A stretch of DNA of 41,075 nucleotides from IMG/VR virus record IMGVR_UViG_2917393062_000004, one strand, 5' to 3'. The DNA comes from a virus (Duplodnaviria; Heunggongvirae; Uroviricota; Caudoviricetes). Made by a program: the position numbers and the translations under genes. Below are positions 1,369 to 41,075 of the stretch, in pieces (position 1 is the first letter of the stretch; each line of letters begins with the position of its first letter). The notes beneath the pieces were generated by a model. The model saw only the letters and a program-made list of their open reading frames with translations, searched no databases and was not told the DNA's origin.

Positions 1369-1444
1369 GCCGATATAGCTCAGTTGGTAGAGCAGCGCAT
1401 TCGTAATGCGAAGGTCGTAGGTTCGACTCCTATTATCGGCACCA
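1369..1444 (+). tRNA. thrW: tRNA-Thr (anticodon CGU)
   Basis: 76-nt cloverleaf GCCGATATAGCTCAGTTGGTAGAGCAGCGCATTCGTAATGCG...GGTTCGACTCCTATTATCGGCACCA with encoded CCA; anticodon loop T-CGT-AA; sits directly after proA as in E. coli. Integrase gene starts 15 nt downstream. Confidence 0.9.
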
Positions 1445-1458
1445 TTAAAATCAATAAG

Positions 1459-8526: not shown

Positions 8527-8546
8527 AGGTCGGTCATGAGCACTAA
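8367..8546 (+). CDS. Small DUF4222-like phage protein (59 aa, TTG start)
   Basis: Strong RBS AAGGAGA 7 nt before TTG; product [46 protein letters not shown] resembles recalled DUF4222 prophage proteins; not in ORF track (non-ATG start). Confidence 0.45.
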
Positions 8547-9477
8547 ATTAACCGGCTATGTATGGGATGGTTGCGCTGCATCAGGCATGAAATTATCCAG
8601 CGTGGCAATTATGGCCCGCCTGGCTGATTTCAGTAATGACGAAGGTGTGTGCTGGCCATCAATTGAAACCATTGCCCGCCAGATTGGCGCGGGAATGAGT
8701 ACCGTCAGAACGGCTATCGCACGGCTGGAAGCAGAAGGCTGGTTAACGCGTAAGGCGCGTCGGCAGGGTAACCGCAATGCGTCGAATGTTTATCAGCTTA
8801 ACGTTGCGAAGCTTCAGGCAGCGGCATTTTCTCAACTGTCAGATTCTGACCCGTCAAAATCTGACGCATCAAAATCTGACCCGTCAAAATTTGATGCGTC
8901 GAAATCTGGCAAAAAAGCGGGTTTTCACCCGTCAGAATCTGGCGGGGATCCGTCAGTAAAATCAAAACATGATCCGTCAGATAAAAAAACTTCTCGTCCG
9001 GACGCTTCGCAACCGGACACGCAGACGGCTGAACAGGAGTTTTTAACTCGCCATCCTGATGCGGTTGTATTCAGCCCTAAAAAGCGCCAGTGGGGAACGC
9101 AGGATGATTTGACCTGCGCACAGTGGCTCTGGAAAAAAATCATCGCCCTGTACGAGCAGGCCGCCGAATGTGACGGCGAGGTGGTTCGTCCCAAAGAACC
9201 GAACTGGACAGCCTGGGCAAACGAAATTCGCCTGATGTGTGTGCAGGATGGTCGTACTCACAAACAAATCTGCGAGATGTACAGCCGCGTCAGCCGCGAT
9301 CCGTTCTGGTGCCGTAACGTGCTCAGCCCGTCGAAGTTGCGGGAAAAATGGGATGAGCTTTCCCTGCGCTTATCGCCGTCCGTCAGCACGTACACCGAAA
9401 AACGTGAAGACCCGTACTTCAAAGCCAGTTACGACAACGTGGACTACAGCCAGATCCCAGCAGGATTCAGGGGGTGA
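8536..9477 (+). CDS. Replication initiation protein (lambda O-like) with internal origin iterons
   Basis: N-terminal wHTH-like domain; central repetitive SK/SD linker encoded by DNA iterons; position after cro/cII. Confidence 0.7.
   Translation: MSTKLTGYVWDGCAASGMKLSSVAIMARLADFSNDEGVCWPSIETIARQIGAGMSTVRTAIARLEAEGWLTRKARRQGNRNASNVYQLNVAKLQAAAFSQLSDSDPSKSDASKSDPSKFDASKSGKKAGFHPSESGGDPSVKSKHDPSDKKTSRPDASQPDTQTAEQEFLTRHPDAVVFSPKKRQWGTQDDLTCAQWLWKKIIALYEQAAECDGEVVRPKEPNWTAWANEIRLMCVQDGRTHKQICEMYSRVSRDPFWCRNVLSPSKLREKWDELSLRLSPSVSTYTEKREDPYFKASYDNVDYSQIPAGFRG
8840..8975. repeat. Origin iterons: about 6-8 direct repeats of a ~15-bp unit (CCGTCAAAATCTGAC-like) inside the O-like gene
   Basis: Direct repeats read in sequence (tcagattctgac, ccgtcaaaatctgac, gcatcaaaatctgac, ccgtcaaaatttgat, gcgtcgaaatctggc, ccgtcagaatctggc...), followed by an A-rich tract. 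Confidence 0.7.
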
Positions 9478-37211: not shown

Positions 37212-37955
37212 ATGCATCGTATAGACACGAAAACCGCGCAGAAGGATAAGTTCGGCGCGGGTAAGAACGGTTTTACCCGTGGTAACCCCCAGACTGGCAC
37301 GCCTGCCACCGATCTGGATGATGACTACTTTGATATGTTGCAGGAAGAACTCTGCAGCGTGGTGGAGGCATCCGGTGCCAGCCTGGAGAAGGCGCGGCAC
37401 GACCAGTTGCTTACCGCGCTTCGTGCGCTGCTGTTAAGCCGCAAGAATCCGTTTGGCGATATCAAATCGGATGGCACGGTGAAAACGGCTCTCGAAAACC
37501 TTGGTTTGGGAGAAGCGGCAAAACGGAATGTGGGCAACGGGGAAAACCAAATCCCTGATATGTCTTTCTGGACGGTTACTGGTGGCAATGGAAATTTTGT
37601 GATTCGTCAACCTGACGGGCTAATCACTCAGATGGTTACTGTAAGTATAAGCGGTCCAGTGGCGATGAATGGAATGACTGATAATGCTTATGCCATTACA
37701 GGTTCTAATAAGTCTTATATTGCCACAGCCACATTGCCCTTTGTATTTCCTAATAAGGTGCTGGGCGTTATCCCTCTGGTATCAACAACAACCTATGGTG
37801 GTGTATCCAGTAATATTACAGGTTCATACGCGACGGCGGTTTGTTCTTTTGCCGCTGTCCGGGGGAATAATACGATTGTATTCAAAGTCGACAAACCACT
37901 GAATGCAGCCTTTCCTTCAGATACCAGCGTCTCAGCGTTAATCATTGGACGGTAA
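37212..37955 (+). CDS. Tail fibre protein: constant N-terminal part plus currently expressed variable C-terminal part
   Basis: N-terminus MHRID...[21 protein letters not shown] typical of Mu S/P2 H-type fibres; crossover site inside the gene at about 37490-37515. Confidence 0.8.
37490..37515. repeat. Left crossover site of invertible segment (gix/pix/hix-like)
   Basis: ctctcgaaaaccttggtttgggagaa; 21/26 identical to the reverse complement of the right site, including a perfect GGTTTGGGAGAA core. Confidence 0.7.
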
Positions 37956-37957
37956 TA

Positions 37958-38401
37958 ATGAACTCAGTATTCTTTTCACCCGGAAGTAAAAGTTTTTATC
38001 TACAAGAATTGTTTCCAGAATATGAGGATGCGGGAACGCTTCCAGATGATGTTATTGAAATTACCCGAGAAACATATGAGCAATTTCTTGGGCTGCATCC
38101 AGAAGGGAAAGAAATTGGCGCTGACAGTTCAGGACGGCCAATATGGATTAATTCCCCACCGCCTTCAAAAGAGGATGAGGTGTTGATGGCTGAAATGAAA
38201 AAAATATCTTTGGTTTCAGAAGCCAATACCTACATCAACACCCATCAGTGGCCTGGCAAAGCTGCTATTGGTCGTCTGAAAGGTAACGAGCTGGAGCAAT
38301 ATAATTTATGGCTGGATTATCTAGACGCACTGGAACTGGTTGATCCCTCCAGTGCTCCAGATATTGAATGGCCTACGCCTCCGGCAGTTCAGGCCAGATG
38401 A
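37958..38401 (+). CDS. Tail fibre assembly protein (Tfa, U-like)
   Basis: 147-aa ORF after the fibre gene; convergent 3' overlap with alternative Tfa. Confidence 0.75.
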   Translation: MNSVFFSPGSKSFYLQELFPEYEDAGTLPDDVIEITRETYEQFLGLHPEGKEIGADSSGRPIWINSPPPSKEDEVLMAEMKKISLVSEANTYINTHQWPGKAAIGRLKGNELEQYNLWLDYLDALELVDPSSAPDIEWPTPPAVQAR

Positions 38402-38975
38402 CATTCGGCGCGGTGCTGGTATCTGTTGCCGTCACCGCGTCAATGTAATCCAGCACAGCGTTAAGCCGGGTTGTTTCTGCCTGCGTCAGTTTCCGTCCGG
38501 CCTGTAATTTCAGCTGAATCAGACTAATGGAAGCCATTGCAGCATCAATCAGTGACTGGCGCTGTGCTTCTGCCGCGTCTACTGCGGCGCTATGCTGTGC
38601 CTCAGTATCGGTCACCCATTTCTCACCATCCCATTTATCGTATGGCGTTAATGGGGCGATAGTGGTTGTATTTTCAGGGTAATCACCCGGAGCTGTGATT
38701 TCTTTTGATTCTCCTGTTTCAGTGCTATAGACCGTTTCACCGCGATGGTCTGGCACATATTCCCATGAGTTAAAATCTGCAGAACGGCAAATTGCATAAC
38801 CAGCTTTATATGAGCCAGGAGCATCTAAACAGGAACTTGCCGGGATACCGACGCCGACAGCGATATATTCATTTGATGTGGAAATATATTCCCGTGTTTC
38901 GCCATCATAGTTATAGACGGTAATATTCCCCGCCTTCGTGGCAATAAGCTCGATATTTAATACGGCTTTATTCAT
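38373..38975 (-). CDS. Alternative tail fibre assembly protein (U'-like)
   Basis: 200-aa ORF inside the invertible segment; C-terminal region similar to the plus-strand Tfa (TAPNVIWPELPEA vs SAPDIEWPTPPAV). Confidence 0.7.
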   Translation of the reverse strand: MNKAVLNIELIATKAGNITVYNYDGETREYISTSNEYIAVGVGIPASSCLDAPGSYKAGYAICRSADFNSWEYVPDHRGETVYSTETGESKEITAPGDYPENTTTIAPLTPYDKWDGEKWVTDTEAQHSAAVDAAEAQRQSLIDAAMASISLIQLKLQAGRKLTQAETTRLNAVLDYIDAVTATDTSTAPNVIWPELPEA

Positions 38976-39421
38976 CAGGCTGCCCTCACGATATAGTTAA
39001 ATGCAATATTCCGTGGGCGAGTATCGGCAGGAACGACATACATTTCACCAATTGCCCGCTCATTAGAGTTGTTCAGCAATAGGCTTGAGCCATTACTGTC
39101 ATGACCCGTAATTAAGATATCATTGGACAAAATAAGTGAGCCTGTACCTGCAGGAATACCATAAATTCCCATATCAAATTTAATATAACCAACACGCGCG
39201 CTCTGTGCAGACATAACGCTGCGACCAGTATCTACTGAACGACCGTCATCCCAGCCACGAATAAACTCACCGCGTAAATCAGGCAATTTATTTGTCGGGT
39301 AAGCCTTTGCCAGTTCTGGGTATTCTTCAGCGGAAAAAGCCGCACCATTGCATTTCAGCCAGCCTGTTGGCGGAGTGGCTGAAGGCCACGGAACAGGGAC
39401 ACCAACAGGTAATGCAGAGCC
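38975..39421 (-). CDS. Alternative tail fibre variable C-terminal domain (S'v-like), expressed only after inversion
   Basis: Tail-collar-like motif (LPVGVPVPWPSATPPTGWLKCNGAAF); no independent N-terminus; reads through the right crossover site; shares GLGE junction with the constant part. Confidence 0.65.
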   Translation of the reverse strand, partial: GSALPVGVPVPWPSATPPTGWLKCNGAAFSAEEYPELAKAYPTNKLPDLRGEFIRGWDDGRSVDTGRSVMSAQSARVGYIKFDMGIYGIPAGTGSLILSNDILITGHDSNGSSLLLNNSNERAIGEMYVVPADTRPRNIAFNYIVRAA

Positions 39422-39447
39422 TTCTCCCAAACCAACGTTTATGAAAA
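39422..39447. repeat. Right crossover site of invertible segment
   Basis: ttctcccaaaccaacgtttatgaaaa; resembles recalled hixL (TTCTTGAAAACCAAGGTTTTTGATAA); inverted copy of the left site. Confidence 0.7.
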
Positions 39448-39501
39448 TGCAGAAATAACGAGCAAATGGCATCATTCCTGCTTTTGTCAGGGAGATCCAC
39501 C

Positions 39502-40056
39502 ATGCTTATTGGCTATGTACGCGTATCAACAAATGACCAGAACACCGATCTACAACGTAATGCGTTGAACTGTGTAGGATGTGAACTGATTTTTGAAGAC
39601 AAGATAAGCGGTACGAAGTCCGAAAGGCCCGGACTGAAAAAACTGCTCAGGACATTATCGGCAGGTGACACTCTGGTTGTCTGGAAGCTGGACAGGTTGG
39701 GGCGCAGTATGCGGCATCTTGTTACGCTGATAGAAGAGTTGCGCCAGCGTGGCGTGAATTTCCGAAGCCTGACTGACAGTATTGATACCAGTACCCCAAT
39801 GGGCCGTTTCTTTTTTCATGTCATGGGAGCCCTGGCTGAAATGGAACGAGAACTGATTGTTGAACGAACAAAAGCTGGACTGGAAGCTGCTCGCGCACAG
39901 GGACGAATTGGTGGACGTCGTCCCAAACTTACACCAGAACAATGGGCGCAGGCCGGGCGATTAATTGCATCAGGCGTTCCTCGCCAGAAGGTGGCGATCA
40001 TCTATGATGTTGGTGTATCGACACTGTATAAGATGTTTCCGGTCGGAGATAAATGA
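39502..40056 (+). CDS. Serine DNA invertase (Pin/Gin/Hin/Cin family)
   Basis: N-terminal MLIGYVRVSTNDQNTDLQ with catalytic Ser; resolvase domain and C-terminal HTH; next to inverted crossover sites. Confidence 0.92.
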   Translation: MLIGYVRVSTNDQNTDLQRNALNCVGCELIFEDKISGTKSERPGLKKLLRTLSAGDTLVVWKLDRLGRSMRHLVTLIEELRQRGVNFRSLTDSIDTSTPMGRFFFHVMGALAEMERELIVERTKAGLEAARAQGRIGGRRPKLTPEQWAQAGRLIASGVPRQKVAIIYDVGVSTLYKMFPVGDK

Positions 40057-40395
40057 AACCGCAGGCTCGTCGTATGCAAGAACGTGCTGCGGCTGGCTGG
40101 TGAACTTCCGATAGTGCGAGTATTGAATGATTTACAGCCGTTATTGATTTTACATATTTTTTGTATGAAAGGATTAGCGCTTCCTCCCACCGATCCTCCA
40201 TGACTTTACGCCACTGTCTCTAGGACTGCTATGTGCCAGTAGCAGACTAGTGATCGCTAGGCTTGAATTCATTCGTATTAGCGCCAAGTGGATAATAAAT
40301 GGTGAAATCCATTAGTCATTACTTTATCATAAGCTCGTTATATAAAGATTTTAGTATTCGTAATTCTTTTCTTTGTTTAAGATGATGAAAATTAT

Positions 40396-40420
40396 ATGAT
40401 ATGATATGATATGATATGAT
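40396..40420. repeat. Pentanucleotide tandem repeat (ATGAT)x5 in the upstream region of the terminal cargo gene
   Basis: Five perfect tandem units about 28 nt before the ATG at 40449; units contain -10-like TATGAT hexamers. Confidence 0.85.
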
Positions 40421-40448
40421 GTGAAGAAGTATAGAGGGATTAATCATC

Positions 40449-41075
40449 ATGAAAAAAATAATATATACTTTTTCTTTGGCTGTGGCTTTATTATTGGCGT
40501 TAAGATGTATCGCCTATATTGATTTTTCTGAAAAAGACATGATCAAGTCAATCATTCCTGCTTGGATTCAAGCCATTGGTAGCATTTTAGCAATTATTAT
40601 TGCCGGTATGATCTCGGCCAATCAAATTAAACATGAGAAACAGCTTGAAAAGAGAAAGGTAGCAGAGTCAGATTTGTCTAAAATGCATATAGTAAGAGCG
40701 CTGATAATACGTTCGTTAACTTTAATGAATGAGGTTCGTCAGGCAATTGAGCGTGGCGAAGAAAGCGACTTTCAGCAAGTGTCTCCTTGGACTATGCGTA
40801 ATACAAAACGTGCAATTGATAATTTAAATTTATTTGAAATACCAGAGGGGATGTTAGCTCTAGATCTGTTGGCTATAGGTCCATCTCTCGAGGAAATAGC
40901 AACCTTATGGGAGCGGTGTATGGAGGAGTCACTACATACTGAAAATAACAAGCCAACTATTGATTCTTACAATGAGCTTGATCAAGGCTCTCAAGAGGTT
41001 TTGAAAATATGTGAAGCCGCTTTTAAATTGGCTACACAAGAGGTTAATCGGCTTGCAGCTATCGTTAAAGAGTAA
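40449..41075 (+). CDS. AT-rich cargo gene: membrane protein with two N-terminal TM helices and helical cytoplasmic domain (208 aa)
   Basis: AGAGGGA RBS; TM segments FSLAVALLLALRCIAYI and AIGSILAIIIAGMISA; low GC; stop at last base of window. Confidence 0.65.
   Translation: MKKIIYTFSLAVALLLALRCIAYIDFSEKDMIKSIIPAWIQAIGSILAIIIAGMISANQIKHEKQLEKRKVAESDLSKMHIVRALIIRSLTLMNEVRQAIERGEESDFQQVSPWTMRNTKRAIDNLNLFEIPEGMLALDLLAIGPSLEEIATLWERCMEESLHTENNKPTIDSYNELDQGSQEVLKICEAAFKLATQEVNRLAAIVKE

Follow-up and report, generated by a model that had tools for sequence, protein, structure and literature searches.

The window, by which we mean the whole stretch of 41,075 nucleotides analysed here, starts with proA, tRNA-Thr(CGU) (1369-1444) and a putative integrase ORF on the minus strand (1459-2622). 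It continues with prophage genes that include a Mu-type baseplate, an invertible tail-fibre segment and then the invertase gene pin, and it ends at the stop codon of an ORF on the plus strand that encodes a protein of 208 amino acids (40449-41075). Upstream of this ORF, five perfect ATGAT units in tandem can be read from the window sequence (40396-40420), separated from the ATG at 40449 by a gap of 28 nt (40421-40448), as an earlier sequence-only reading of this DNA had described.

The distal end of the prophage

The 3' part of tRNA-Thr(CGU) contains the attL core (1399-1454, plus strand), and a 56-nt block identical to it, representing attR, is found in near-identical E. coli loci about 2.4 kb past the position where the window ends. 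No copy of the att sequence is present between pin and the 208-aa gene and, since attR lies beyond that gene, the gene is located inside the integrated element. This agrees with the earlier placement of the gene at the distal end of a prophage, the element being integrated at tRNA-Thr. A transposable Mu-like prophage ending just after the invertase was also considered, and was rejected in view of the putative tyrosine integrase beside tRNA-Thr and of the 56-nt att repeats. In the early region, a 15-nt unit (TCTGACCCGTCAAAA) is repeated 4.3 times (8845-8908) inside an ORF of 313 amino acids (8536-9477), and these repeats look like replication-origin iterons within an initiator gene.

The Pin-type serine invertase gene (39502-40056, plus strand), named pinE in near-identical loci, encodes Resolvase and HTH_7 domains. 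Inverted repeats of 20 nt (37496-37515 and 39421-39440) delimit the tail-fibre segment (37496-39440), and three loci that are otherwise 99.9% identical (L001, L002 and L005) have it the other way round, the Pin-invertible host-range switch being caught in both of its states across genomes. Downstream of the invertase lies a conserved non-coding segment of about 190 nt (40060-40253, plus strand), which is present in around 1300 of 5426 complete E. coli genomes, with counterparts at 2995-3196 in L022 and at 2501-2687 in L157. Other prophages carry different ORFans after this segment, with neither Pfam nor PADLOC matches, and such an exchange of cargo genes behind the same segment defines a variable cargo slot. 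In IPCEC31, the segment is present without an adjacent pin.

Prophage morons, or lysogenic-conversion genes, are known from prophage ends, and include mom after gin in Mu, bor and lom in lambda, and old, tin and fun in P2. Like them, the 208-aa gene is a single AT-rich gene with a promoter-like region at the distal end, within the att boundaries; it lies after the tail-fibre/invertase module, outside the core phage modules, has an atypical GC content, and is replaced by other genes in related prophages. Its description as the AT-rich membrane-protein cargo gene of the element is thereby upheld. However, its product belongs to none of the families of mom, bor/lom or old/tin/fun, and matches none of the family or defence models searched.

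Between the 208-aa gene and attR, related loci carry a 34-aa ORF and a DUF4365 gene. The former reads RVIQLLLGH by eye, which may be the remnant of a tyrosine-recombinase box II. The latter is convergent to the 208-aa gene and lies about 0.8 kb past the window end, inside attR (L001 7826-8821, minus strand); its product of 331 amino acids is recognised by Pfam (E=4e-11) and, in PADLOC, weakly matches PDC-M02A, which is a candidate defence family (E=7.7e-7). This arrangement suggests that the distal end of the element is mosaic, possibly defence-related.

The 208-aa protein and its cassette

Kyte-Doolittle analysis finds two hydrophobic segments in the protein, at about residues 4-24 and 34-58, and these match the helices of the AlphaFold2 model (pLDDT 82.9; residues 2-23 and 29-102), bearing out the two N-terminal transmembrane helices that had been proposed from the sequence. 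In the model, the second transmembrane helix runs on into a long helix that packs into a C-terminal four-helix bundle. This bundle is probably cytoplasmic, and the charge distribution weakly favours a cytoplasmic location of both termini. A lipoprotein reading of the N-terminus, prompted by a weak LPAM_1 match, was rejected, as ALRC is not a lipobox and the cysteine is not conserved.

Against the Pectobacterium and Trabulsiella orthologues, dN/dS is 0.08-0.13 at a dS of 0.53-0.64, and a ratio of about 0.1 indicates a real, constrained protein under strong purifying selection. Invariant or near-invariant residues are concentrated in the second transmembrane helix (W39, Q41, A42, G44, A48 and I49), which bears the family signature W39-x-Q41-A-x-G44, and also include P127 and P132.

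The searches for a known function gave little. PADLOC returned no match, the best Pfam, PHROG and NCBIfam E-values were 0.017 or weaker and fell below the cut-offs, and a Pfam scan of 40 family members gave no match at all (0/40). A PDB sequence-profile search yielded nothing below E=0.1, and fold searches retrieved only generic four-helix bundles or helical bundles. Thus, neither PADLOC, PHROG, Pfam and NCBIfam nor the solved structures place the protein in a known defence or superinfection-exclusion family, and the earlier proposal of an exclusion or defence factor was pure inference that these results do nothing to strengthen. Judged from location alone, a superinfection-exclusion or defence role is plausible; we would propose, with low confidence, a role that benefits the lysogen, e.g., superinfection exclusion or some other membrane-level function.

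A word-indexed search of 5.8 billion proteins returned only 10 clusters, all from Enterobacterales, and an exhaustive profile search found 146 representatives at an E-value of 1e-3 or better, nearly all of them of about 200 amino acids. Genomic and viral scans add relatives in Xanthomonadales, Burkholderiales, Pseudomonas and others, with 72 IMG/VR contigs among the carriers; among the weaker family matches, which rest mostly on the motif in transmembrane helix 2, there may be false positives. Of 54 long viral contigs, 20 carry the gene no farther from an end than 10% of their length, vs. 20% expected (p=0.003), and the clustering of neighbours at 36 loci reveals no conserved neighbour gene. 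The protein represents an uncharacterised proteobacterial family of membrane-anchored four-helix-bundle proteins, whose genes are found alone and often near prophage ends or integrases.

Together with about 200 nt of conserved upstream DNA, the gene makes up what may be described as a cassette (40233-41075, plus strand), which in relatives extends about 370 nt beyond the stop codon. Its start coincides with the junction motif GTGCCAGTAGCAGAC (40233 in the window), with which the 208-aa cassette also begins in unrelated contexts. At 99% identity, the cassette is found in a 'STEC island' of 28 complete genomes, mostly of Shiga-toxin E. coli. In this island (L003 1-5870), the right end of the cassette is cut by an IS66-family element, and the neighbours include patatin-like phospholipase, RdcB-family, dynamin-family and GTPase genes, together with a 195-aa ORFan, a neighbourhood that resembles a defence island. 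A diverged cassette, with about 87% coding-sequence identity, is present in Trabulsiella and in Pectobacterium, where it follows a RelE/HTH pair and has a fragment of an integrase gene nearby. A homologue of 47% identity lies directly after a prophage integrase. From these comparisons, the cassette is a portable single-gene unit with at least four genomic contexts.

The pentanucleotide tract and its promoter

In its context, the tract reads AAAATTAT(ATGAT)5GTGAAGAAGTATAGAGGGATTAATCATC-ATG. Once partial units are added, the period-5 run occupies 40394-40424, the interval that Tandem Repeats Finder reports in the ATATG register with 6.2 copies and 96% matches. The longest period-5 run measures 27 nt, in comparison to a mean of 12.4 and a maximum of 16 in 300 shuffles of the whole window, and to a maximum of 16 in 2000 shuffles of the local AT-rich kilobase; at any other period, no run longer than 17 nt is found in the whole window. 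A run of this length far exceeds what chance would give, and the repeat is genuine. Two further elements of the sequence-only reading are also recovered here: the DNA downstream of the invertase is AT-rich (local GC of 37.6%, vs. 50.3% for the window), and the repeat contains -10-like TATGAT hexamers, as each unit junction forms TATGAT after a TG (TGaTATGAT, an extended -10).

Consensus scans, in themselves weak evidence, point to a candidate promoter region of the cargo gene at 40373-40405 (plus strand). The best candidate sigma-70 promoter pairs TTAAGA (40377-82) with TGaTATGAT over a spacer of 17 (-10 at 40400-05), and the second pairs TTGTTT (40373-78) with TATGAT (40395-40400) over a spacer of 16; the -10 position of this second site aligns with TATAAT in the STEC-island allele and with CATAAT in Pectobacterium. 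Promoter-like sites are frequent in this part of the window, with 13 in 39900-41075 vs. 3.9 expected. The 200 nt upstream of the gene are 66-78% identical between genera, somewhat above the expectation from dS, which suggests regulatory constraint. At the other end of the gene, a strong hairpin can be read in relatives about 200 nt past the stop codon.

The sequence-only reading had further suggested that a change in the number of units could shift the geometry of the promoter and switch expression. We rebuilt alleles with one to seven units and scanned both strands for consensus promoters. The top sense promoter is identical for all copy numbers of at least two, and the second sense site is also fixed regardless of the repeat number. 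This spacing is unchanged because the repeat sits at and downstream of the first -10, and not between the hexamers. With each extra unit, the leader grows by 5 nt and a further overlapping extended -10 appears, for which there is no matching -35; the distance from the -10 to the ATG is 28+5(n-2) nt, where n is the number of units. The geometry of the best predicted sense promoter thus stays constant from two units on and only the leader lengthens, so that the suggestion is not supported.

A Shine-Dalgarno sequence, GAGGGA (40434-40439, plus strand), is read 9 nt before the ATG. In folded leader RNAs beginning at the proximal or the distal start, the unpaired probability is about 0.91 for the Shine-Dalgarno sequence and 0.56 for the AUG, the same for two to eight units, and the values at zero to one unit are only trivially different; no effect of copy number on the predicted accessibility of either element is found between 0 and 8 units from either start. 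An Rfam search returned nothing above threshold. With this blank result and with leader folds that are insensitive to copy number, a mechanism at the RNA level was dropped. An 11-nt inverted repeat (40423-40433 and 40464-40474; GAAGAAGTATA and TATACTTTTTC) brackets the Shine-Dalgarno sequence and the start codon of the 208-aa gene, and forms a stem in every leader fold, with the initiation region in the loop.

Unchanged sense spacing and unchanged predicted accessibility mean that the anatomy of the locus argues against an on/off switch by spacer length. Copy number would have at most a quantitative effect on expression, and possible routes for it are the competing tandem -10 elements, the length of the leader, or an antisense promoter that depends on n. 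On the minus strand, the repeat does separate two hexamers anchored in the flanks, TTCACA and TATAAT (40396-91), by a spacer of 8+5(n-2) nt, which amounts to 18 only at four units. From five units on, a constant TTCACA-18-TATCAT is available within the tract (40425-20 and 40401-40396 in the window), a promoter-like site by consensus match only. No conserved gene is found downstream on the minus strand. An ORF of 43 amino acids on this antisense strand (40319-40450) spans the repeat, and its frame would depend on copy number; it was rejected as spurious because it is not conserved in the upstream regions of Pectobacterium and Trabulsiella.

Copy-number alleles and their interpretation

The repeat interval is bounded by GATGATGAAAAT and GTGAAGAAG; the exact protein is present in 274 collection blocks, and 24 contigs were read. 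Among the sequences sampled, five units are found in the window only, and four units in a single genome, that of strain YZ3E2001, in which the gene is truncated by IS3. Two perfect units are the state of about 16 prophage-type sequences, among them GF3-3, eight further distinct NCBI assemblies (L004, L006-L012), two metagenome contigs, and two contigs encoding the 99% protein variant P0001; the PLSDB record NZ_OL790696.1, which is chromosome-sized, has the two-unit length and was assigned by length only. An imperfect pair, ATAAT-ATGAT, is carried by 29 island-type sequences, one of them a metagenome contig and the others the 28 complete genomes. Hence 45 of the 47 sampled E. coli-type sequences have a pair of units, perfect or imperfect, and 29 of the 30 complete E. 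coli genomes have the two-unit length. The orthologous promoters of Pectobacterium (CATAATGTGAT) and Trabulsiella (GCGTGATTTGAT) lack the repeat, and so do those of Providencia and of the 47%-identical homologue.

Further searches added no longer allele: a pattern search of GTDB representative genomes and IMG/VR gave 0 matches, INPHARED phages had no match to the cassette, a metagenome scan gave 3 matches, all of the two-unit length, and the one record retrieved from PLSDB is really a chromosome with that same length.

When aligned to 39421-41075 of the window, the two-unit loci show zero substitutions and one gap of 15 nt, and the four-unit locus shows zero substitutions and one gap of 5 nt, the flanks compared measuring 1.5-1.65 kb. 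Since the flanks of the two-, four- and five-unit alleles are identical, slippage is the only difference between them, and the tract is the fastest-changing site in the segment. The check for variable copy number across isolates, which the sequence-only reading had put forward, is in this way answered positively (2, 4 and 5 units on otherwise identical DNA), and slippage at this site is real. Two expanded alleles among only about 18 prophage-type sequences, with zero flanking substitutions, show the site to be unusually mutable once expanded. The long tract, however, is not maintained across strains or orthologues and, as almost all relatives have two copies, it speaks for a rare and recent expansion rather than for an evolved on/off switch. 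Compared with the other alleles, the long form is derived and rare, the usual state of the site being a proto-repeat of two units.

Simple sequence repeats (SSRs) are known to drive phase variation from promoters, as in hifA/hifB of H. influenzae, with (TA)n between the -35 and the -10, nadA of N. meningitidis, with (TAAA)n upstream of the promoter, and the homopolymers of opc and porA. The ATGAT tract shares with these systems a short tandem repeat in or next to a promoter, prone to slippage and with a copy number that varies between isolates. However, their tracts lie between the -35 and the -10 or at a regulator site, where unit changes alter spacing, and are long and kept across strains, whereas the ATGAT tract begins at the -10 and extends downstream, leaving the spacing of the best promoter unchanged, its usual allele has two units, and orthologous promoters lack it.

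A general framework for SSR phase variation is available (PMC6321876), in which the PhasomeIt cut-off for phase-variable pentanucleotide tracts is at least five units. With exactly five, the tract of the window is just at this cut-off, one relative has four, and all other sampled sequences have two or none. Coding-region pentanucleotide repeats include CTCTT in the opa genes of Neisseria and CACAG in a type III R-M gene of Pasteurella (Mannheimia) haemolytica (cited in PMC6321876). These have in common with the ATGAT tract a unit of five and the mechanism of slippage, but they are intragenic and act by frameshifting translation, whereas the ATGAT tract lies 28 nt upstream of the start codon. 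On phage DNA, the contingency loci of T2/T4 are also hypermutable repeats, although those are frameshift-prone coding tracts of lytic phages with demonstrated effects (bioRxiv 10.1101/2025.10.21.683753), and here we deal with a promoter/leader microsatellite of a prophage cargo gene, known from its sequence alone.

In our view, to which we would give a probability of roughly 0.6, the tract is a young microsatellite, near-neutral or weakly modulatory, on the promoter of a prophage cargo gene. This verdict follows from the two-unit state of 45 of the 47 sequences, the lack of the repeat in orthologous promoters, the unchanged sense-promoter spacing and predicted RBS accessibility, and the location of the other expanded allele on a disrupted gene. 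Replication slippage would have built the tract from the promoter's -10 region in a horizontally mobile single-gene cassette. Comparison of the alleles shows that the -10 region was ancestrally ...CATAAT.TGAT..., the form of other genera, and that the island copy of E. coli has TATAAT-ATGAT; a change from A to G produced the two perfect ATGAT units of the prophage copy, which rare lineages then expanded to four units and, in the window, to five. Each added unit would bring one overlapping extended -10 (TGaTATGAT) and 5 nt of leader and, with intact sense spacing and an accessible predicted ribosome-binding site (RBS), the expansion is most likely neutral or a quantitative modifier, and not a phase switch. 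The series from ATAAT-ATGAT to two perfect units, and on to four and five on identical flanks, mainly offers a clean natural example of the birth of a microsatellite from a -10 proto-repeat. The kind of feature is ordinary (a promoter-proximal SSR polymorphism on a prophage moron), found in a new place and with an uncharacterised protein family. Two resources also deserve to be flagged, namely that Pfam-less family of membrane proteins near prophage ends, and the variable cargo slot behind Pin, which about one in four complete E. coli genomes has.

The same variation could be read as that of a contingency locus, in which slipped-strand changes of the ATGAT tract switch or tune the transcription of the membrane-protein gene and generate heterogeneous populations of lysogens. 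Such a locus would account for a tract that overlaps the -10 region, varies between 2, 4 and 5 copies on identical flanks, and reaches the five units usually taken as the prediction cut-off (PMC6321876); moreover, the TTCACA-18-TATAAT arrangement that forms on the minus strand only at four units could give antisense interference. We nevertheless consider it unlikely, because the sense -35/-10 spacing is independent of copy number, no change of RBS accessibility is predicted, and the two units of 45 of the 47 E. coli-type sequences are too short for high-frequency slippage. This two-unit norm, together with the orthologous promoters of other genera that lack the repeat, indicates that the locus has no conserved or selected mutability, and the only other expanded allele belongs to a gene disrupted by IS3. 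The fuller version of this idea, a contingency promoter in which each unit is an extended -10, and the number of tandem promoters, the leader and the antisense register all vary to give stochastic expression of exclusion or defence proteins from a new family of membrane-anchored four-helix bundles, strikes us as quite improbable. If it were a functional switch, its design would be unusual, as the repeat unit itself would be the -10 element and, to our knowledge, E. coli and its prophages rarely use switches driven by SSRs.

That the repeats are iterated binding sites of a regulator, i.e., an operator array whose copy number sets the strength of repression, would fit the island allele ATCATATAATATGAT, a perfect 7+1+7 palindrome that overlaps the -10 in an operator-like manner, and an upstream region more conserved (66-78%) than expected from a dS of 0.53-0.64. 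We find this very improbable, since the palindrome is not conserved in Pectobacterium or Trabulsiella, the 5-bp register would set successive sites on opposite faces of the helix, and the cassette has no linked candidate regulator. That only one sequence has five units might also reflect an artefact of assembly or sequencing, but this is hardly credible when the alleles differ in length by exact multiples of 5 nt, four units are seen in an independent assembly, and 25-nt pentamer arrays are not a typical error mode of current platforms.

Apart from the tract, in several of the two-unit assemblies (L004, L008, L009 and L012) the prophage has largely been replaced upstream of pin or of the cassette. 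The replacement genes are of class 1 integron type, with Multi_Drug_Res and Pterin_bind domains and a DHFR or an aminoglycoside nucleotidyltransferase, and are accompanied by a transposase gene (rve/DDE_Tnp_IS240) whose size is that of an IS6-family insertion sequence. With integron-type genes in place of the prophage, the remnant at tRNA-Thr is now an insertion site for antibiotic resistance.
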